From Shigella phage SSG23: a stretch of 64,000 nucleotides of DNA. Both the position numbers and the translations under genes were made by a program. The notes beneath the pieces are model-generated. The model did no database searches, was not told where the DNA came from, and saw nothing but the letters and a program-made list of their open reading frames with translations. Location: the sequence record PQ351811; one strand, 5' to 3'. Positions 2,272-63,617 of this stretch are shown here, one piece after another. Every line of letters begins with the position of its first letter. Position 1 is the stretch's first letter.

Positions 2272-3297
2272 ATGAAAATTTTGCTTTTGGGTGATCTGCA
2301 TACTGGTATCGGTGGCGATGATCCGTGGGTGCATGAGTATATTTTAGACACGATCAAGAAAGCGGTTGATTATTCTAAAGAAAATGGTATTAAGACATGG
2401 ATTCAAACAGGGGATTGGTTTGATTGCCGCAAGGCGATAACTCATGAAACCATGAAGTTTAACCGTACTAAGGTCATCCCATTACTGGAAGAGGCTGGAA
2501 TTACTTGTTATATCACGGTCGGGAATCATGATATGTTTAAACGAAACAAGATCCAGCCTAACGCACCGCGTGAAGTGTTAAGCCAGTATGATTGCATTAA
2601 GGTCATCGATAAGCCGGAAACAGTTACCTTTGATGGTGTATCGTTTGATCTGTTCCCGTGGTTTTGTGATGATAATAAATCAGAGGTTTTAGAGTTTATT
2701 CAAAATTCATTCAGCGAATATTGTGTAGGCCATTGGGAATTGTCTGGTTACTATTTCTATAAAGGTCTAAAATCCGAAGGTTATAGCGCGGACTTCCTCA
2801 AGAAATACCGTGAAGTGTTTTCCGGTCACTTTCATACTATCAGTGATGGCGGTAACGTAACGTATATTGGCACACCATACACACTAACGGCGGGTGACGA
2901 AAACGATCCGCGTGGTTTTTGGGTATTCGATACCGATACACACAAAAAAGAGTTTATCCAGAATGATAAAACATATCATGTGCGTATCACTTACCCGTCA
3001 GATGATAAAATCGACGTAGAACGCTATAAGGGGCTTAGTGTGCGTCTTATCGCAACGGTCGCTGATAATGGGTTAACTAAGTTAGAAAGCGCGTTAGAAG
3101 CCGTTGTGCATAAGCTAAAAGTGGTCCATAAGCTGGAGAGTAGCGCATCACAGGAAACAGGTGTTATTGAAGTTAAAAGCACTATTCAGATGGTCTATGA
3201 ATATCTGGAAGAACAAAACCTAGAACCGGAAGAACTTGCGGCAGTTAAGCGCATCTCTGATGAACTTTTAGCCGAAGTAAATAGCGCAAAAAGTTAG
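2272..3297 (+). CDS. 47: recombination endonuclease subunit gp47 (Mre11/SbcD-like)
   Basis: Calcineurin-like phosphoesterase motifs (LLLGDLHTG, GDWFD, GNHD); 341 aa versus T4 gp47 339 aa; followed by gene 46. Confidence 0.9.
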   Translation: MKILLLGDLHTGIGGDDPWVHEYILDTIKKAVDYSKENGIKTWIQTGDWFDCRKAITHETMKFNRTKVIPLLEEAGITCYITVGNHDMFKRNKIQPNAPREVLSQYDCIKVIDKPETVTFDGVSFDLFPWFCDDNKSEVLEFIQNSFSEYCVGHWELSGYYFYKGLKSEGYSADFLKKYREVFSGHFHTISDGGNVTYIGTPYTLTAGDENDPRGFWVFDTDTHKKEFIQNDKTYHVRITYPSDDKIDVERYKGLSVRLIATVADNGLTKLESALEAVVHKLKVVHKLESSASQETGVIEVKSTIQMVYEYLEEQNLEPEELAAVKRISDELLAEVNSAKS

Positions 3298-3326
3298 TTG
3301 ACGCGGGGAGAAATCCCCGTTATACT
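3298..3326 (+). promoter_or_regulatory. sigma70-like early promoter with spacer hairpin (PeSL-like)
   Basis: TTGACG, 17-nt spacer containing CGGGGA-GAAA-TCCCCG hairpin, TATACT. Confidence 0.6.
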
Positions 3327-25869: not shown

Positions 25870-26064
25870 ATGAAACCGTTTAAGAATGAAGAAACTCAAA
25901 AATTTTGTGAAAAAATTGCAGAAATCTACTTGACAGGAGAGAAGGAAAAGGCTAATATTATGTTCAAAGAGGCAGTTTCCTTGATGAAAGTAGCACGCTG
26001 GGAACTGATTGCAATGCAAGACCAAATTCGTTATCTAGTAACAAAGGAGAATCAAAATGCGTAA
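25870..26064 (+). CDS. hypothetical protein
   Basis: ORF downstream of promoter-hairpin at 25811. Confidence 0.35.
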   Translation: MKPFKNEETQKFCEKIAEIYLTGEKEKANIMFKEAVSLMKVARWELIAMQDQIRYLVTKENQNA

Positions 26065-32851: not shown

Positions 32852-32880
32852 AGCCGATCCTTGTGGTCGGCTTTTTTTTA
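32852..32880 (+). terminator. rho-independent terminator
   Basis: AGCCGA-tccttgtgg-TCGGCT followed by T8. Confidence 0.7.
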
Positions 32881-32892
32881 TTTTAAAAGTTG

Positions 32893-32921
32893 TTGACTTC
32901 CATAATCCAACATTGCATAAT
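32893..32921 (+). promoter_or_regulatory. candidate early promoter
   Basis: TTGACT, 17 nt, CATAAT; follows terminator at 32852. Confidence 0.45.
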
Positions 32922-32952
32922 ACACCCATACCAAACAAAAGGAGATTCAAAA

Positions 32953-33159
32953 ATGAAAGTACGTTGCATTGAAACCGATCACATCAATTATAGCTTTAGT
33001 GTCGGGTGTGATTATGATGTTGATATATTCACGGACAATAGCGGAAACACATTTGATGTAGTTCACGGTGACTATATTTGGTTTTACTTTGACAAACAAC
33101 AACTTACTGCAACCAAACGAAATGGTGATCCGGTAGCAAAATTTGAAATAATCGAATAA
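32953..33159 (+). CDS. hypothetical small protein (paralog of 61313..61531)
   Basis: 68 aa, MK..C start and C-terminal DPVAKFEIIE; flanked by promoter-hairpin cassettes. Confidence 0.45.
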   Translation: MKVRCIETDHINYSFSVGCDYDVDIFTDNSGNTFDVVHGDYIWFYFDKQQLTATKRNGDPVAKFEIIE

Positions 33160-33165
33160 AGTCTA

Positions 33166-33200
33166 TTGACACCAGAACAAGGGAGTAGTAACATACTCCC
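33166..33200 (+). promoter_or_regulatory. PeSL-like promoter-hairpin cassette
   Basis: TTGACA, 17 nt, TAACAT; GGGAGTAGTAACATACTCCC hairpin; conserved leader CCATACCAAACAAAAGGAGAATCA. Confidence 0.6.
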
Positions 33201-33225
33201 ATACCAAACAAAAGGAGAATCAAAG

Positions 33226-33502: not shown

Positions 33503-33673
33503 ATGAACTGGTATAAAATTTGGAAAAATCAGGTGGAGGCTTATCTAGGGTATAAGCCCACCGACGAAGAATTACTCGATGCAATGTACGAAGACGGACT
33601 AAATCCGAAAGTAGCCGCGCAAGAATACGCGGAATGGATGAAGGTCGAAGATAACCTAAAGGGGAAACTATGA
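33503..33673 (+). CDS. hypothetical small protein
   Basis: 56-aa ORF. Confidence 0.35.
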   Translation: MNWYKIWKNQVEAYLGYKPTDEELLDAMYEDGLNPKVAAQEYAEWMKVEDNLKGKL

Positions 33674-33894
33674 AGAAAATGATTGCAATTGCTTTGCTGG
33701 CTAGTGCATGTACTGTAAATGCTAATACCGCAGCGATGGTCGCGGCTGTAACTGCTGCAAATGCTTCCGTTATGGCTTCACAAGAGGCAGCACGCCAGCA
33801 AGCACAACAAGAAGCCCAGCGAAAAGCACATGAGGCGACGAAAAATTTTCACGAAAATAATAAAAAAGAAGTTGACGCCAAAGGTCGTCGGTAG
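33670..33894 (+). CDS. small secreted protein (signal peptide)
   Basis: N-terminus MKKMIAIALLASACTVNA is a typical Sec signal peptide; Ala/Gln-rich mature part. Confidence 0.45.
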   Translation: MKKMIAIALLASACTVNANTAAMVAAVTAANASVMASQEAARQQAQQEAQRKAHEATKNFHENNKKEVDAKGRR

Positions 33895-57995: not shown

Positions 57996-58003
57996 AATAA
58001 GTG

Positions 58004-58032
58004 TTGACGCGGGGAGAAATCCCCGCTATAAT
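58004..58032 (+). promoter_or_regulatory. PeSL-like promoter-hairpin cassette
   Basis: TTGACG, 17-nt spacer with CGGGGA-GAAA-TCCCCG hairpin, TATAAT; near-identical to the 3298 copy. Confidence 0.65.
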
Positions 58033-59288: not shown

Positions 59289-60455
59289 ATGGGAAATACG
59301 GTATTTAATCGTGAACATGTTGATATTATGAATGAACCGATGTTTCTGGGTAGCGGTTTAGGTATCGCTCGTTATGACATTCAGCGTCATCAAGTATTTG
59401 AAGAACTAATTGAAAAATCTCTGTCATTTTTCTGGCGTCCAGAAGAGATTTCACTTGCAACTGACCGCATTCAATATCTGAATATGGGCGATGTTGAAAA
59501 ACGTTTCTTTACAGAAAACTTGAAGTATCAGACATTACTTGATTCTATTCAAGGTCGCGCACCATCCGCAGCATTTGGTCCAATTGTATCTGATCCGACT
59601 CTCGATACATGGTTGCAAACATGGACATTCAGCGAGACAATTCATAGCCGCAGTTATACTCACATTATGCGTAACTGTTTCATTGATCCGGCTAGTGAGT
59701 TTGACCAGATCATCGATAACCCTGCTATCATGAAGCGAGCGGAATCTATCGGGCAATATTATGATGATGTTCTTTATTGGATTCGTAAGTATGAGAATGC
59801 AAAAGAAGATCTCCGCTATTGGGAAGAACGAGACGACCAGACAGCATTAGATGATGCAAGAAGAGTTTTTGAAGATACAAAACGAGATCTGATGGCGTCG
59901 ATTTATCTGTGTGCACACTGCGTTAATGCACTGGAAGCAATCCGTTTTTATGTATCCTTTGCATGTACTTTCAGCTTTGCCGAACGTGGTTTACTGGAAG
60001 GTAACGCGAAGATCATGAAATTTATTGCGCGTGATGAACAACTTCACTTAAAAGGTACACAATACATTATTCGTCAATGGCAAACGGGGGCTGACGGTGA
60101 TGAGTGGAAACAGATTGCGGAAGAACTTGAAGACGAAGCAACGAAAATCTTTCTGGATGTTGTCGAGCAAGAAAAAGAATGGGTAGACCACCTATTCGCA
60201 ATGGGGGCAATTCCTAACCTGTCACCGGAAATTCTGAAAACCTATGTAGAATACCTGGCAGATTCCCGTATGCGTGCTGCCGGACTGAAAAGCCCGTTTA
60301 GTGTTCGTCGTCATCCTTTACCGTGGATGCGTAAGTGGTTAAACTCTGACGAAGTTCAAAACGCGGCGCAAGAAGTAGAGATCATGTATCTGGTATCTCA
60401 GGTTAATACCGATTTAACAGACGACGACTACAACCGATTCGGGAAATATCTATGA
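59289..60455 (+). CDS. nrdB: ribonucleotide reductase small subunit NrdB (class Ia)
   Basis: Di-iron/tyrosyl radical motifs (FSETIHSRSYTHI, ASIYLCAHCVNALEAIRFYVSFA, ARDEQLH); uninterrupted 388-aa ORF. Confidence 0.95.
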   Translation: MGNTVFNREHVDIMNEPMFLGSGLGIARYDIQRHQVFEELIEKSLSFFWRPEEISLATDRIQYLNMGDVEKRFFTENLKYQTLLDSIQGRAPSAAFGPIVSDPTLDTWLQTWTFSETIHSRSYTHIMRNCFIDPASEFDQIIDNPAIMKRAESIGQYYDDVLYWIRKYENAKEDLRYWEERDDQTALDDARRVFEDTKRDLMASIYLCAHCVNALEAIRFYVSFACTFSFAERGLLEGNAKIMKFIARDEQLHLKGTQYIIRQWQTGADGDEWKQIAEELEDEATKIFLDVVEQEKEWVDHLFAMGAIPNLSPEILKTYVEYLADSRMRAAGLKSPFSVRRHPLPWMRKWLNSDEVQNAAQEVEIMYLVSQVNTDLTDDDYNRFGKYL

Positions 60456-60928
60456 TATATTTTGTCGATTTAGATTTTACGATCACAGATCCAACGCATC
60501 GACTAGCTAAGATGCCAACCGAAAATCTTGATAAAGTCGAGTCATGGATCGAATATAACAAGGCATGTGGGGGAGATTCCCCCATTTACGATGTAATTCG
60601 TGTTATCAATGCTCTTTCTGACAACGGTCATTTGATTTACATCCTCACCGGACGAAGTTCACATGCTTACATAGAAACGGTGGAATGGCTGATCGCTAAT
60701 GATGTGTGTTTCGATAAAATCTTTATGAGAGGTCGCAATGATTCCCGTAAAGACTATCACATCAAATTAGAGGTAATTAAATCCTTTGATAAAGATGAAG
60801 TTGTCGGAGTCTTTGAGGATAACCCGGAAGTGATTAAAGTTCTCAGAGAAAACGGCTATCGTGTCTTTGACGTAGGAAATCACAAAGACAAGACACGAGC
60901 GGATATTGCAAATCACGGTCATGATTAA
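60452..60928 (+). CDS. HAD-superfamily phosphatase-like protein
   Basis: N-terminal FVDLDFTIT (HAD motif I, DxDxT), ILTGR (motif II-like) and FEDN near C-terminus. Confidence 0.5.
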   Translation: MIYFVDLDFTITDPTHRLAKMPTENLDKVESWIEYNKACGGDSPIYDVIRVINALSDNGHLIYILTGRSSHAYIETVEWLIANDVCFDKIFMRGRNDSRKDYHIKLEVIKSFDKDEVVGVFEDNPEVIKVLRENGYRVFDVGNHKDKTRADIANHGHD

Positions 60929-60940
60929 TGTTTGTTCAAA

Positions 60941-60964
60941 GTCGCCCATAGTGGCGACTTTTTT
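60941..60964 (+). terminator. rho-independent terminator
   Basis: GTCGCC-catagt-GGCGAC followed by TTTTTTGTT. Confidence 0.65.
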
Positions 60965-60975
60965 GTTATTGGGTG

Positions 60976-61004
60976 TTGACAATCGGATCTTGCCATAGCA
61001 TAAT
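60976..61004 (+). promoter_or_regulatory. sigma70-like early promoter
   Basis: TTGACA, 17 nt, CATAAT; follows terminator at 60941. Confidence 0.5.
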
Positions 61005-61028
61005 ACGCACATCGAAACGGAGGAACAT

Positions 61029-61247
61029 ATGGAAACAGAAGAACAAGTCATTGCATATTTTCATCGTAAAAAGATGAAACTTAGAATCGAAAAACAGTAC
61101 ATCAATCACTATATTGACCGAGTCCACTTAACAAGTACACCTTACCTATTCCGGTTGATAAACCCTCGAAAACGGTGGGATAAGTTGGATAGAAACACAA
61201 AAATAATTGATAAACTCACCCAATGGTGGAATGAATACAACAAGTAA
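61029..61247 (+). CDS. hypothetical protein
   Basis: 72-aa ORF downstream of promoter at 60976. Confidence 0.4.
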   Translation: METEEQVIAYFHRKKMKLRIEKQYINHYIDRVHLTSTPYLFRLINPRKRWDKLDRNTKIIDKLTQWWNEYNK

Positions 61248-61297
61248 AAAAGTAGTTGACACTGAATAACGGGGGTAGTAATATACCCCCATCGAAA
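61246..61297 (+). repeat. 52-bp direct repeat, copy 1
   Basis: aaaaagtagttgacactgaataacgggggtagtaatatacccccatcgaaac, identical to 61523..61574. Confidence 0.85.
61255..61289 (+). promoter_or_regulatory. PeSL-like promoter-hairpin cassette (duplicate copy 1)
   Basis: TTGACA, 17 nt, TAATAT; GGGGGTAGTAATATACCCCC hairpin. Confidence 0.6.
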
Positions 61298-61312
61298 CAA
61301 AGGAGAATCAAA

Positions 61313-61531
61313 ATGAAATTTATCTGCACCGACTCTATCAGCAAACACTTTGTAGTAGGCGAAGTATACGAATCTACTACCATTCGTCAGCGTGACCTGA
61401 TGGGTCGCCTTTACAATCAGCCAGTATTCATTATTGGTGAAGAATTGTTCTACATTGAAAACCGTCCGTGGGTTGCTTTCAATAAACGAGGACGCAAGGT
61501 AGCAAAATTCGAACTTGTCATTAAAAAGTAG
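61313..61531 (+). CDS. hypothetical small protein (paralog of 32953..33159)
   Basis: 72 aa ending KVAKFELVIKK; flanked by an exact 52-bp promoter-hairpin duplicate. Confidence 0.45.
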   Translation: MKFICTDSISKHFVVGEVYESTTIRQRDLMGRLYNQPVFIIGEELFYIENRPWVAFNKRGRKVAKFELVIKK

Positions 61532-61574
61532 TTGACACTGAATAACGGGGGTAGTAATATACCCCCATCGAAAC
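61523..61574 (+). repeat. 52-bp direct repeat, copy 2
   Basis: Exact copy of 61246..61297; the two copies bracket ORF 61313..61531. Confidence 0.85.
61532..61566 (+). promoter_or_regulatory. PeSL-like promoter-hairpin cassette (duplicate copy 2)
   Basis: Same sequence as copy 1. Confidence 0.6.
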
Positions 61575-61601
61575 GAAACTAACTTACTAAGGAGTATCAA
61601 G

Positions 61602-62000
61602 ATGATTAAATTTCAAACTCGCAAAGACGTTCTGGACTTCGTTAAAGTTTTCGGTTACGCTGCATTGCAACATGCAATGGACAAAATGACCATCACCCCA
61701 GATCAGACTATGCTGATCCGTATGGTTAAAGCAACCGCCTACAAAAACGACATTACCCTCTCAGAAATCAACGACGGTAATACTGTCCGCGAGGTGATTG
61801 TTTCTTTCGAATCACCGAAAATTGGCGGTTTTCATACCACGATGTTAGGCGAAATCACTGTCACTGTATACGGGCAAGGTGGCGGAGTGTTCACCGTAAA
61901 AGAAGCGATGGAAAACGGGACACTGAACAAAGAAAAACTGGAATTTGTCCTGAAAATCATCAAGGAGCGTAACGAAGCTCGCGATATTCTGGAAAGTTAA
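61602..62000 (+). CDS. hypothetical protein
   Basis: 132-aa ORF followed by terminator hairpin at 62008. Confidence 0.45.
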   Translation: MIKFQTRKDVLDFVKVFGYAALQHAMDKMTITPDQTMLIRMVKATAYKNDITLSEINDGNTVREVIVSFESPKIGGFHTTMLGEITVTVYGQGGGVFTVKEAMENGTLNKEKLEFVLKIIKERNEARDILES

Positions 62001-62007
62001 TAAGGTG

Positions 62008-62030
62008 GGCGGGAGAAATCCCGCCTTTGT
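62008..62030 (+). terminator. terminator-like GAAA-tetraloop hairpin
   Basis: GGCGGGA-GAAA-TCCCGCC followed by TTTGTTGT. Confidence 0.5.
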
Positions 62031-62050
62031 TGTGACGTGAGGAAAGGATA

Positions 62051-62512
62051 ATGATTAATGAGCTAATAGAAAACTATGGATTCGTTAAATATTCATGTTT
62101 AGAGTGTAAAGATGGTGATGTGATTCTACCGCCTCAGAAGAACCGTTTAAATGTTCTTTACGCTATTGTGGTTGATGATGAACTGGTATATATTGGTCAG
62201 ACTGTTAATCTAAGAAAGCGGATCAATTATTACCGGACTAGCATTAACAGACAGACACCAACGGCGGATACTCGCAAGAGTAAGAATATTCATAAGGCGC
62301 TAGAGGAAGGGAAGACAGTAACATTCTATTACCGCCAGTGCTTTGAGTTGTACATCGAGAATCCAACGGGTAAGGATATTATAAGCACTGCCGATATCGA
62401 AGAACCTGTTTTGATCACCAAATTTAAACCAGAATGGAACACAAATTATGTCAACAAAAGAAAACAACAAAAAAGTTTTAGCATTGTTCAAAAATCTGAT
62501 GACACTATGTGA
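62051..62512 (+). CDS. GIY-YIG nuclease domain protein
   Basis: LYAIVVDDELVYIGQTVNLRKRINYYR is a GIY-YIG motif; only 153 aa; 3-prime end overlaps the gene 63 start by 65 nt. Confidence 0.55.
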   Translation: MINELIENYGFVKYSCLECKDGDVILPPQKNRLNVLYAIVVDDELVYIGQTVNLRKRINYYRTSINRQTPTADTRKSKNIHKALEEGKTVTFYYRQCFELYIENPTGKDIISTADIEEPVLITKFKPEWNTNYVNKRKQQKSFSIVQKSDDTM

Positions 62513-63617
62513 CGGATCTGATACGTTCTATTACAAAGATGAAATTACGGCAATGCAAACCCGTATGCGCATTTTTAGTTATCTGTACTTGAGCAAACCT
62601 GAAATGTGGAATAAACCAGATGCGTTAGAGTGTCGCGGGATCATGTTTGAAATCGATGATAAAGACCGACCAGTCCGCATTGCATCTCGTCCTATGGAGA
62701 AGTTTTTTAATTTAGGCGAGAATGACCGCGCTCGCTTTAAGCCGGAAGAGGTGGAAATGGTCATGGACAAAATGGACGGTAGTCTAGTAAGCACATACAT
62801 TGATAACGGCTATGTTCAGTTGAAGTCTAAAGCGGCCTTGTACTCAAGCCAGGCAGAGAGAGCAAACGGTCTTCTGTATTCAGAGAAGTATGCGGAACTA
62901 CGTGCTAAGATCGCCGATATTGGATCTGATTATACTTTCAACTTTGAATATACAGCACCAAGCAACCGAATTGTTGTAGAATACAACGAACCGTCGCTAA
63001 CACTTCTGAATGTACGCCATAACGTCACAGGAGAGTATGTACCGCATCAAATTCTATTCGCCGATGCAATCCTGCGTCCTCATCTGGTAAATGCGTTACA
63101 GGTTGATTCAGCGCGGTTTAGCAATATTCTTGATGAAGTTCGGACCGCAGAAGGTATCGAGGGAATTGTTGCACGAACCAAAGACGGTCAGATGTTCAAG
63201 GTGAAAAGTGAATGGTATATTGGTGTGCATAACATTAAAAACACATCGATGTTTCCTAATAACCTGATCTACTATGTCGTAGAAAGCGAAACCGATGATT
63301 TGCGTGCTGCATATGAAGGTGAACCGGAAGCACTGGAACGAATCGAGCTATTCGAGGAAGCATTCAGGTCTATTCTTCGCAATGCCTTCACGACAGCAAC
63401 AGAATTTTATAACGCACACGCGGGAGAAGACAGAAAGACATATGCATCCAATGCGACTATCGAATCACGTAAACATGGTGATGCACAAGCATATATTTTC
63501 ATGTGTCTGATGATTGCATTTGATGGTCTTGATTATGACCGTATTCTGGCTTCAATGAAAACTTACTATCTACGGAATTATAAGAAACTGATTCCGGCTG
63601 ATAAGATTGATTGGTAA
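62448..63617 (+). CDS. 63: RNA ligase 1 gp63 (tail fibre attachment)
   Basis: PDALECRGIMFEID, PVRIASRPMEKFFNL, KMDGSLVSTY (ligase lysine motif) and FLRNYKKLIP match T4 Rnl1. Confidence 0.85.
   Translation: MSTKENNKKVLALFKNLMTLCDGSDTFYYKDEITAMQTRMRIFSYLYLSKPEMWNKPDALECRGIMFEIDDKDRPVRIASRPMEKFFNLGENDRARFKPEEVEMVMDKMDGSLVSTYIDNGYVQLKSKAALYSSQAERANGLLYSEKYAELRAKIADIGSDYTFNFEYTAPSNRIVVEYNEPSLTLLNVRHNVTGEYVPHQILFADAILRPHLVNALQVDSARFSNILDEVRTAEGIEGIVARTKDGQMFKVKSEWYIGVHNIKNTSMFPNNLIYYVVESETDDLRAAYEGEPEALERIELFEEAFRSILRNAFTTATEFYNAHAGEDRKTYASNATIESRKHGDAQAYIFMCLMIAFDGLDYDRILASMKTYYLRNYKKLIPADKIDW

Follow-up and report, generated by a model that had tools for sequence, protein, structure and literature searches.

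Promoter-early stem-loops (PeSLs), composite regulatory cassettes described in the T4-type phages RB49 and phi1, are the closest described counterparts of the locus reported here (Arbiol, Comeau, Kutateladze, Adamia and Krisch 2010, Genome Biol Evol 2:140, PMC2839356). The paper proposes PeSL-to-PeSL recombination and modular shuffling, reports mini-circles recovered by inverse PCR for RB49 ORF192 and ORF210, and uses lacZ reporters to show promoter and terminator/attenuator activity for PeSLs 206/205 and 211/210 (PMC2839356). The gene order from ORF225 to ORF228 is the same in RB49 and phi1; the numbers 225-227 do not appear in the main text of the paper (PMC2839356). PeSLs were extended to other T4-like phages by Comeau et al. 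2014 (PMC4122927).

We identify two identical copies of a promoter cassette on either side of a small ORF in a phage of this group, and propose, with a probability of about 0.85, that both are PeSLs of the RB49-like T4-type phages and act as recombination sites. Gene exchange at promoter cassettes in this phage is the published PeSL model, encountered in the same phage genus, and is already known. The likeness to RB49 and phi1 covers the genus, the cassette anatomy, the arrays of ORFans in plastic regions, and indels or replacements that leave chimeric cassettes; the mechanism and the PCR test put forward in the initial annotation are those found in the 2010 paper (PMC2839356). No new kind of element is revealed. 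A published mechanism of phage plasticity has been rediscovered independently and confirmed with 58 genomes at a locus that a two-genome study could not resolve. What we add is the variation at this locus across those genomes, two different junctions of ORF227 loss, and one cassette pair whose homogenisation is graded, with exact matches of 16 to 59 nt.

The window, the whole 64-kb stretch of DNA analysed here, matches Shigella phage SFHK24 (genus Krischvirus, RB49-like T4-type) at 100% identity and RB49 at 95%. The features of its nrdB-denA array are as follows.

60938..61004, plus strand: cassette that opens the array, ahead of the ORF228 homolog, with a T-tract terminator hairpin (60938-60961) and promoter TTGACA-17-CATAAT (60976-61004)
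61029..61247, plus strand: 72-aa ORF, homolog of RB49 ORF228c (phrog_18672)
61247..61298, plus strand: left copy of the exact 52-bp repeat, maximal, aligned to RB49
61256..61284, plus strand: sigma-70-type promoter of the left PeSL, TTGACA (61256-61261), 17-nt spacer, TAATAT (61279-61284)
61271..61290, plus strand: hairpin of the left PeSL over the -10 box, GGGGGTA-GTAATA-TACCCCC, 7-bp stem
61300..61305, plus strand: Shine-Dalgarno AAGGAG, 7 nt before the ATG (61313) of the 72-aa ORF
61313..61531, plus strand: 72-aa ORF between the 52-bp copies, homolog of RB49 ORF227c (phrog_14957, a family without assigned function)
61523..61574, plus strand: right copy of the exact 52-bp repeat, maximal
61532..61560, plus strand: sigma-70-type promoter of the right PeSL, TTGACA-17-TAATAT
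61547..61566, plus strand: hairpin of the right PeSL, same sequence as the left hairpin
61575..61601, plus strand: leader and Shine-Dalgarno (AAGGAG, 61589-61594) of the ORF225 homolog, ATG at 61602
61602..62000, plus strand: 132-aa ORF, homolog of RB49 ORF225c (phrog_10173)
62007..62025, plus strand: terminator-like hairpin (predicted) after the ORF225 homolog, ending the cassette array before denA

The initial annotation had reported an exact 52-bp duplicate flanking the 72-aa ORF, and so it is, except that the left copy had been placed one base out of register, at 61246..61297 instead of 61247..61298. The ORFs at 61313..61531 (72 aa, ending KVAKFELVIKK) and 32953..33159 (68 aa, ending DPVAKFEIIE) are as it described them. 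The two copies are offset by 276 bp, and the match can be extended on neither side. The left copy forms the core of the PeSL that lies between the homologs of RB49 ORF228 and ORF227 and starts on the final A of the upstream TAA stop codon, that of the ORF228 homolog, which ends at 61247. The right copy, whose first 9 nt are the final two codons and the TAG stop (61529-61531) of the 72-aa ORF, forms the core of the PeSL that separates the ORF227 and ORF225 homologs. Within the 64-kb window this pair is the longest exact direct repeat, followed by repeats of 23, 22, 21 and 20 nt, of which the 23-, 22- and 21-nt repeats proved to be parts of promoter cassettes when compared with the cassette list. 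The 20-nt exact direct repeat lies at 26040/61296. Tandem duplication was considered as the origin of the 52-bp repeat and rejected: the repeated part is the cassette only, and the ORF228 and ORF227 homologs, equal in length, are set apart by PHROG family. An Rfam scan of 60400-62600 returned a single sub-threshold chance match (NsiR4, E 0.41).

Both copies have the elements of a PeSL, namely an A-rich stretch with a stop codon, sigma-70 boxes, a polyG/polyC stem-loop, and a Shine-Dalgarno sequence with a start codon. In each, AAAAAGTAG stands before TTGACA as the A-rich stretch with the upstream stop, and the promoter hexamers match the sigma-70 consensus at 10 of 12 positions. The hairpin has a predicted folding energy of -14 kcal/mol as RNA (z about -3); having no U-tract, it does not qualify as a canonical intrinsic terminator. 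The plus strand of the window carries about 19 similar cassettes, and the cassettes further resemble PeSLs in their many copies per genome, in preceding ORFans within a plastic region, and in the indel junctions that fall within them. This anatomy fits the published PeSL subclass whose stem-loop overlaps the -10 box, and the experiments on other PeSLs suggest, by analogy, that the present cassettes have promoter and attenuator activity (PMC2839356). The nrdB-denA interval would then be an array of one-gene expression units, each cassette being ordered as an A-rich stretch with the upstream stop, a near-consensus sigma-70 promoter, a G5/C5 hairpin, and an A/C-rich leader with the Shine-Dalgarno sequence. 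The host polymerase would use the promoter at an early stage of infection, and the hairpin over the -10 box may serve as an attenuator or terminator in read-through RNA arriving from upstream.

Gene content at the nrdB-denA locus varies, with at least five gene orders among the 58 Krischvirus records that make up our comparison sample. Between pnk and denA the order is 228-227-225 in SFHK24, Brandy, JK32, ECD7, JSE, and phiS; 228-227-226-225 in RB49, phi1, and FL37; 228-226-225 in ELT3 and AV108; and newA-newB-227-226-225 in ELT4 and E26, in which ORF228 has been swapped for a two-ORF module. ORF227 is mostly stable despite its flanks, since it is kept in 56 of the 58 records at 97% identity or more. 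It is missing from ELT3 and AV108, where one chimeric cassette remains between the two genes that neighbour the lost ORF. The ELT3 junction is the left end of PeSL 228/227 fused to the 227/226 leader, and the AV108 junction retains the 228/227 leader as far as the ATG; the loss of ORF227 therefore involved crossovers at two different points. The window and about 10 other phages (12 records) lack ORF226, with two types of junction, one in the leader (SFHK24 group) and one at the -35 box (phiS). Positions 61575..61601 hold the junction at which ORF226 is absent together with the PeSL that belongs to it, a segment of about 221 bp in RB49. Every junction that we looked at, for the ORF226, ORF227, and ORF228 variants and for those of the 68-aa ORF, falls inside a cassette. 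A comparison of ORF presence and absence in related phages, which the initial annotation had proposed as a check, thus gave cassette-precise junctions at ORF227, at its neighbours 226 and 228, and at the 68-aa ORF, and these junctions support the idea that the cassettes allow genes to be lost or swapped by homologous recombination.

The positions of the crossovers also bear on whether a dedicated site-specific recombinase moves these gene cassettes by reading the GGGGG...CCCCC hairpin, as an integron integrase reads attC. Outside the promoter, the hairpin is the part of the cassette that is conserved best, and the authors of the 2010 paper raised such a possibility themselves when they likened PeSL-plus-ORFan units to integron cassettes (PMC2839356). 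The crossovers, however, are scattered over the -35 box (phiS), the hairpin or the sequence to its left (ELT3), the leader (SFHK24 group and the 68-aa ORF locus), and the Shine-Dalgarno/ATG region (AV108), a distribution that fits exchange guided by homology and not exchange confined to a fixed site. An indel is bounded even by the cassette at 32893, which has no such hairpin, and the same authors report that they found no integrase-like gene in RB49 or phi1 (PMC2839356). We consider a recombinase of this kind highly improbable.

We propose that the phage's homology-driven recombination and replication machinery pairs two PeSLs out of register, which would be possible because the cassettes resemble each other. 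Mispairing of this kind would remove the intervening gene or genes and leave one chimeric cassette, to which the published model adds a small circle as a second product. Run in reverse, the reaction would insert a gene, replacement of a module could also result, and pairing without crossover would lead to gene conversion that makes neighbouring cassettes more alike. The SFHK24 homolog of ORF227 may be unusually prone to excision as a 276-bp unit because its flanking cassettes are identical over 52 bp, and the predicted product is a 276-bp circle. Such a unit would still be a complete promoter-Shine-Dalgarno-ORF-stop cassette, since the stop codon lies within the repeat. The pathway of recombination and the direction in which each event ran are inferred, as is any ongoing excision in SFHK24; the comparative data fit reciprocal recombination and replication slippage alike, and deletion and insertion alike.

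Replication slippage, in the sense of copy-choice template switching between direct repeats with the hairpin possibly stalling the polymerase, would involve no reciprocal exchange and no mini-circle, and the deletion products would be the same by either pathway. Short, closely spaced direct repeats favour slippage in repeat-mediated deletion, and the short repeats here, only 276 bp apart, offer a favourable geometry; the identities at some junctions are very short (the Shine-Dalgarno/ATG region in AV108, the leader in the SFHK24 group). Slippage makes no circles, however, and sequenced products from RB49 and phi1 include, for ORF192 and ORF210, circles with chimeric PeSLs, among them a dimer circle. 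The unrelated two-ORF module at ORF228 and the sporadic 68-aa ORF require insertion or exchange, which is beyond slippage. Slippage as the sole pathway is possible though, in our judgement, unlikely, and we retain homology-driven recombination between PeSLs as the reading of this locus.

The PeSLs that flank ORF227 differ widely in how far they match each other. Their longest exact match is 16 nt in RB49 and ECD7, 18 in phiS, 19 in JSE, 22 in phi1, 29 in JK32, 32 in FL37, 52 in SFHK24, and 59 in Brandy, and in Brandy both copies carry an extra C in the 3' arm that was seen in no other genome examined. The 52-bp identity is a lineage-specific homogenisation. It could stem from recombination between phage lineages with different PeSL alleles and not from conversion within one genome; all component variants of the SFHK24 pair occur in other genomes.

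Two strong early promoters might also be kept alike by selection, in which case their identity would be unrelated to recombination or mobility. Both copies are near-consensus sigma-70 promoters with an architecture like that of the roughly 19 others in the window, and the high conservation of ORF227 in 56 of 58 relatives agrees with such stability. This explanation is weakened by the lineage specificity of the repeat identity: the spacer, the stem bases, and the leader, which are under no known promoter constraint, vary in RB49, ECD7, JSE, and phiS and are identical in SFHK24 and Brandy. The two Brandy copies, moreover, have a derived insertion in common, and natural deletions, insertions, and replacements join inside cassettes. 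We find selection by itself very unlikely to account for the repeat.

The same series of values speaks to the quality of the SFHK24 record, in which the exact duplicate could be an artefact of assembly or polishing. Consensus polishing can homogenise short near-identical repeats, and exactly this 52-bp pair is found in one record only. Assembly error is nevertheless an unlikely source because Brandy, which was sequenced independently, has an even longer exact repeat of 59 nt at the same two positions. FL37 (32 nt) and JK32 (29 nt) give intermediate values, every component variant is found in other genomes, and we give an artefact almost no credence. The homogenisation of PeSLs at this locus has practical value: the range of 16 to 59 nt in one cassette pair is a ready test of excision frequency against homology length in a T4-type phage, and the nrdB-denA array, with its five gene orders and several crossover points, is a compact natural series for the study of PeSL-mediated exchange.

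A second locus in the window contains the 68-aa ORF.

32853..32921, plus strand: cassette upstream of the 68-aa ORF, with a T-tract terminator hairpin (32853-32871) and promoter TTGACT-17-CATAAT (32893-32921)
32925..32945, plus strand: left copy of the 21-nt leader/Shine-Dalgarno repeat CCCATACCAAACAAAAGGAGA, crossover zone at which genomes with and without the 68-aa ORF differ
32953..33159, plus strand: 68-aa ORF (phrog_9122), possible distant homolog of the 72-aa ORF
33166..33200, plus strand: PeSL downstream of the 68-aa ORF, TTGACA-17-TAACAT, hairpin GGGAGTA...TACTCCC (33181-33200)
33198..33218, plus strand: right copy of the 21-nt repeat CCCATACCAAACAAAAGGAGA, an exact match to the left copy

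This ORF had been described as a paralog of the 72-aa ORF that is bracketed in the same way. Promoter-like cassettes do start at 32893 and 33166, but they are not an exact duplicate: 38 of 62 positions are identical, with a 21-nt exact stretch in common, and no hairpin covers the -10 box of the cassette at 32893. Only 13 Krischvirus records contain the 68-aa ORF, and the junction in its absence lies within the 21-nt leader repeat of the flanking cassettes. The locus has five gene orders, with junctions in cassette leaders.

The paralogy itself depends on weak similarity, and we consider the homology of the 72-aa (phrog_14957) and 68-aa (phrog_9122) ORFs to be weak and probably real, as judged from their sequences. 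BLASTP aligns them at 31% identity over 72 columns (E 1e-5, for a single pair), and their Smith-Waterman score of 57, against 22 +/- 4 for shuffled sequences, was reached by 0 to 1 of 20,000 shuffles. The 72-aa ORF also matches phrog_9122 over its full length (E 0.006). An hhalign comparison of the two families, by contrast, gave a probability of just 41%, over 23 C-terminal columns. In tblastn searches of the phage collection neither ORF recovered its counterpart at E<=1, a word-indexed protein search with the two small proteins returned near-identical clusters only, and single-sequence AlphaFold models had pLDDT values of 54 and 65, too low for comparison. The flanked small ORFs had no match in Pfam, and PHROGs assigned them to families of unknown function.

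The nearest outside relatives of the 68-aa ORF are found in T1-like siphophages. A full HMMER search with this ORF returned only clusters from Krischvirus, a T1-like protein of 71 aa, and four long sequences (P0004-P0006, P0008); the last four were rejected as compositional junk because they matched unrelated Pfam families without defined domains. Sfin-1, a T1-like siphophage of the Drexlerviridae that shares the Shigella/E. coli hosts, has about 20 cassettes with ATAGCACnnnTTGnTAAA, a hairpin overlapping TATAGT, and CATCGAAACGA...AGGA...ATG. Their leaders are almost identical to Krischvirus PeSL leaders (CCCCATCGAAACGAAAC and CCCATACCAAAC), and one such cassette stands directly 5' of the outside homolog that is closest to the 68-aa ORF (61% protein identity). 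Promoter/leader cassettes common to unrelated phage families might serve as recombination linkers during co-infection, by which small early genes such as the 68-aa ORF would cross between families; we regard this as a doubtful proposition. The alternative is that the likeness reflects convergence on a good sigma-70 promoter and an unstructured A/C-rich leader. When the DNA of the 68-aa ORF locus is aligned with that of Sfin-1, the similarity hardly extends beyond the coding region and therefore gives no direct evidence for cassette-bounded transfer between families. Nothing relevant to PeSL-like cassettes in T1-like phages was found in the literature searched.

Integron cassettes resemble PeSL arrays in their single promoter-proximal small genes, their hairpin-forming repeats at the bounds, and their circular intermediates, an analogy drawn by the PeSL authors (PMC2839356). 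PeSL arrays differ in having no integrase, a separate promoter in each PeSL, and crossovers that are scattered and not confined to one site. Morons are thought to enter genomes by illegitimate recombination without conserved flanks, whereas the flanks of PeSL units are themselves the homologous substrate. With the Botstein-Campbell linker model and the morons of Hendrix, PeSLs share short conserved intergenic joints and genes that carry their own promoter and terminator (PMC2839356). Deletions between short direct repeats in T4 (Singer et al. 1982; Mosig et al. 1998, cited in PMC2839356) are a further parallel, since recombination and replication of the T4 type work on patches of homology under 50 bp, and deletions of small nonessential T4 ORFs involved GGGC/GCCC motifs (cited in PMC2839356). 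The T4 deletion repeats are fortuitous or specific to T4, whereas PeSLs are a genome-wide family of sigma-70 promoter cassettes.

A 52-bp sequence, AAAAAGTAGTTGACACTGAATAACGGGGGTAGTAATATACCCCCATCGAAAC, is repeated exactly and in the same orientation at 61247..61298 and 61523..61574; the copies start 276 bp apart, and the identity extends no further on either side. No other exact direct repeat in the 64-kb window comes near it in length; the runners-up measure 23, 22, 21, and 20 nt (the last at 26040/61296), and the first three are parts of the same cassette type. The initial annotation had the exactness and the right copy correct but placed the left copy at 61246..61297, one base out of register; its two ORFs, of 72 and 68 aa, were found as stated, and both proteins belong to families of unknown function. 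Over this region the sequence is that of Shigella phage SFHK24 (Straboviridae, Krischvirus) at 100% identity, and it shares 92–98% identity with 57 further Krischvirus records, RB49, phi1, and JSE among them. In RB49 names, its ORFs are pnk-like ORF229c, ORF228c, ORF227c (the 72-aa ORF), ORF225c, and denA.

Features of the two loci
60452-60928: 158-aa polynucleotide-kinase-like ORF (RB49 ORF229c), directly 5' of the cassette array
61029..61247: upstream ORF; the last base of its TAA stop is also base 1 of the left repeat copy
61247..61298: left repeat copy
61313..61531: 72-aa ORF
61523..61574: right repeat copy, including the final two codons and TAG stop of the 72-aa ORF
32853-32871: hairpin, then TTGACT-17-CATAAT at 32893-32921; cassette upstream of the 68-aa ORF, of terminator-plus-promoter type, without a hairpin over the -10 box
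32953..33159: 68-aa ORF (P68)
33166-33200: cassette downstream of P68, a typical PeSL

Upstream of nrdB, the adjoining sequence is a homing-endonuclease gene in SFHK24 (L001 1-289) and small ORFs 231c and 232c in RB49 (L002 1-280). ORF229c has a homolog of the same length in the T1-like phage Sfin-1 (gp16; L024 9131-9607, minus strand; 30% identity, E 9e-31). Separately, a 28-nt sequence occurs at 3297-3324 and 58003-58030, 54.7 kb apart, with 27/28 positions identical.

Both repeat copies carry TTGACA, a 17-nt spacer, and TAATAT, matching the sigma-70 consensus at 10/12 positions. A hairpin with a G5/C5-rich 7-bp stem and 6-nt loop (-14 kcal/mol, z ~ -3) lies over each -10 box without a U-tract 3' of it, followed by an A/C-rich leader and AAGGAG 7 nt upstream of the ATG. 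The plus strand of the window holds about 19 such cassettes, clustered at 32.9–34.7 kb and 61.0–61.6 kb. They match the published definition of the promoter-early stem-loop (PeSL), described as an AT-rich region with an upstream stop, a sigma-70 promoter, a polyG/polyC stem-loop that can take any of five positions, over the -10 box among them, an SD, and a start codon; RB49 and phi1 are reported to carry 51–52 PeSLs each, chiefly 5' of ORFans and in hyperplastic regions (PMC2839356).

Thirteen genomes were compared at the nrdB-denA locus, with all intergenic cassettes from pnk to denA read.

Gene orders at the nrdB-denA locus (RB49 ORF numbers)
228-227-225: SFHK24, Brandy, JK32, ECD7, JSE, phiS (read); Skers, UPWr_E1, G2494, Whisky (BLAST span)
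228-227-226-225: RB49, phi1, FL37, and ~30 more
228-226-225: ELT3, AV108
newA-newB-227-226-225: ELT4, E26 (read); 011D4 (BLAST footprint)

Of the 58 Krischvirus records, 56 yield the 72-aa ORF by tblastn (≥97% identity); the exceptions are ELT3 and AV108. ELT3 retains one cassette, consisting of the ORF228 stop, AAAAAGTAGTTGACACTGAATAACGGGGGTAGTAATATACCCCC, and the ORF226 leader ATACACTTTAAGGAG, the exact product that would be expected of a crossover at any point in a homogenised 52-bp pair. AV108 keeps the ORF227-type leader ACAAAGGAGAATCAAATG as far as the ORF226 ATG, so its exchange point differs from that of ELT3. Absence of ORF226 shows two junction types, one in the leader immediately 5' of the SD (SFHK24 group) and one at the -35 box (phiS), beyond which the sequence continues as the body of PeSL 226/225. 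The two-ORF module replacing ORF228 has both joints within cassette leaders. The expectation that genes move or are swapped at these cassettes is thus supported by presence, absence, and replacement in related genomes, as every junction examined at the locus falls within a cassette. With their scattered positions, the junctions fit exchange guided by homology better than the action of a site-specific enzyme; the scatter and the hairpin-less cassette at 32893 both disfavour a hairpin-specific, integron-like recombinase. The deletions fit replication slippage as well as reciprocal exchange; module replacement, however, requires exchange, as do the excised circles published for other PeSLs, namely ORF192 and ORF210 (inverse PCR, sequencing, and ultrafiltration; PMC2839356).

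PeSL 226/225 of AV108 (L005 2023-2107) is damaged, being rearranged to GCAGTTGGGGAGTAGTAAGATACTTAGTAAGATACTCCCAT with loss of the -35 box and spacer and duplication of TAGTAAGATACT. ELT3 denA (endonuclease II; L004 2563-2817) encodes 84 aa versus 153 aa elsewhere, with an apparent frameshift after residue 48; the ELT3 cassettes also show several differences in homopolymer length, making sequencing error possible.

P68 had been described as bracketed in the same manner. Cassettes do lie on both sides, but they are not exact duplicates, agreeing at 38/62 positions, including an exact 21-nt leader/SD repeat (CCCATACCAAACAAAAGGAGA). Across Krischvirus, the ORFs in the interval downstream of gp52 come in five or more different orders.

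Gene orders at the second locus (B to G, ORFs downstream of gp52)
B-P68-C-D-E-F-G: SFHK24
B-C-D-E-F-G: GEC-3S
B-C-D-G: RB49
B-G: ECD7
B-P68-C-D-G: JK32

Within Krischvirus, P68 is confined to 13 records. In genomes lacking it, the B/C junction is cassette-precise, running from the left cassette through the shared 21-mer into the SD-to-ATG spacer of ORF C. ORF E of SFHK24 (33670-33894; 74 aa) continues past the -35 box of the PeSL that follows it and ends in KKEVDAKGRR, indicating that cassette sequence can become a coding C-terminus; in GEC-3S, ORF E has 66 aa and its stop precedes the cassette.

The two ORFs had been claimed to be paralogs. Pairwise alignment favours this (BLASTP, 31% identical from end to end, E 1e-5 in a single comparison; Smith-Waterman score 57 versus 22 ± 4 for shuffles, reached by 0 to 1 of 20000), and the 72-aa ORF matches phrog_9122, the P68 family, end to end (E 0.006). 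Against it, hhalign of small family alignments gave 41% probability over 23 C-terminal columns only, and in database-scale searches neither ORF retrieves the other. AlphaFold models of both were too weak for comparison. Distant homology is probable, though not established.

For each phage, we took the cassettes on either side of ORF227 and recorded the longest stretch over which they agree exactly.

Longest exact match between ORF227-flanking cassettes
RB49, ECD7: 16 nt
phiS: 18 nt
JSE: 19 nt
phi1: 22 nt
JK32: 29 nt
FL37: 32 nt
SFHK24: 52 nt
Brandy: 59 nt

The -35/-10 spacer varies, reading CTGAATAA or GCATGAAA, and so do the hairpin (TAAGATACTCCC or TAATATACCCCC) and the leader; across genomes these variants assort as a mosaic. 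In Brandy, the 3' arm of both copies has one additional C, seen in no other genome examined. The pattern is the signature of copy-to-copy conversion or recombination, not of promoter selection alone. Graded, lineage-specific identity disfavours selection as the sole explanation and makes an assembly artefact unlikely. Homology patches under 50 bp are cited as sufficient for T4 recombination (PMC2839356); with pairs of 52–59 nt attaining that length, loss of ORF227 is predicted to be easier in SFHK24 and Brandy than in RB49. We propose, with a probability of roughly 85%, that PeSLs serve as early promoter/attenuator units and would also supply dispersed homology on which the recombination/replication machinery of the phage acts, with excision, insertion, replacement, and conversion as the outcomes.

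The element type, its role in the genus, and the proposed mechanism were already published in 2010 and 2014, the 2010 proposal being that ORFans are deleted, inserted, or swapped via recombination between flanking PeSLs (PMC2839356). The initial interpretation, with the PCR test it suggested, therefore rediscovers this model, and the natural variants described here are new instances, not a new kind. RB49 and phi1 are alike in gene order at ORF225-228, and the main text of that report does not contain the numbers 225-227.

The nearest P68 homologs outside Krischvirus lie in T1-like siphophages, at 60–61% identity in Sfin-1 (gp25; L019 701-907) and Shfl1, with 71% nucleotide identity over 126 nt in the Shigella T1-like phages; homologs of ~41% identity occur in ~90 Klebsiella phages, those fetched being Webervirus (e.g. 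L020 701-913). This distribution suggests that genes flow between a myovirus and siphoviruses with common hosts. DNA similarity between Krischvirus and T1-like phages is limited to the coding region. Immediately 5' of the T1-like homologs lie PeSL-resembling cassettes, for which no description was found in the literature searched.

PeSL-like cassettes in T1-like Drexlerviridae, ~20 per genome
Sfin-1 (NC_047998; Drexlerviridae), ~20 genome-wide, e.g. L024 8443, 12624, 13402, 14423, 15163, 25992, 27015: minus strand
Klebsiella Webervirus: L020-L022 619-703

Each comprises a conserved ATAGCACnnnTTGnTAAA box, ~22 nt with a G-rich hairpin over TATAGT (in many cases part of the extended -10 TGnTATAGT), a leader (CATCGAAACGA or CCCCATACCAAC) nearly matching Krischvirus PeSL leaders, an SD, and ATG. 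In Escherichia phage SU57 (Braunvirinae, T1-like), a sequence 5' of a lipoprotein gene (L023 1201-1269) is 81% identical to window positions 61550-61617, covering the right half of the PeSL there, its leader, and SD. The likeness between T1-like and Krischvirus cassettes could reflect either convergence or a recombination linker common to phage families, and this cross-family reading is the sole part of the analysis with some novelty.
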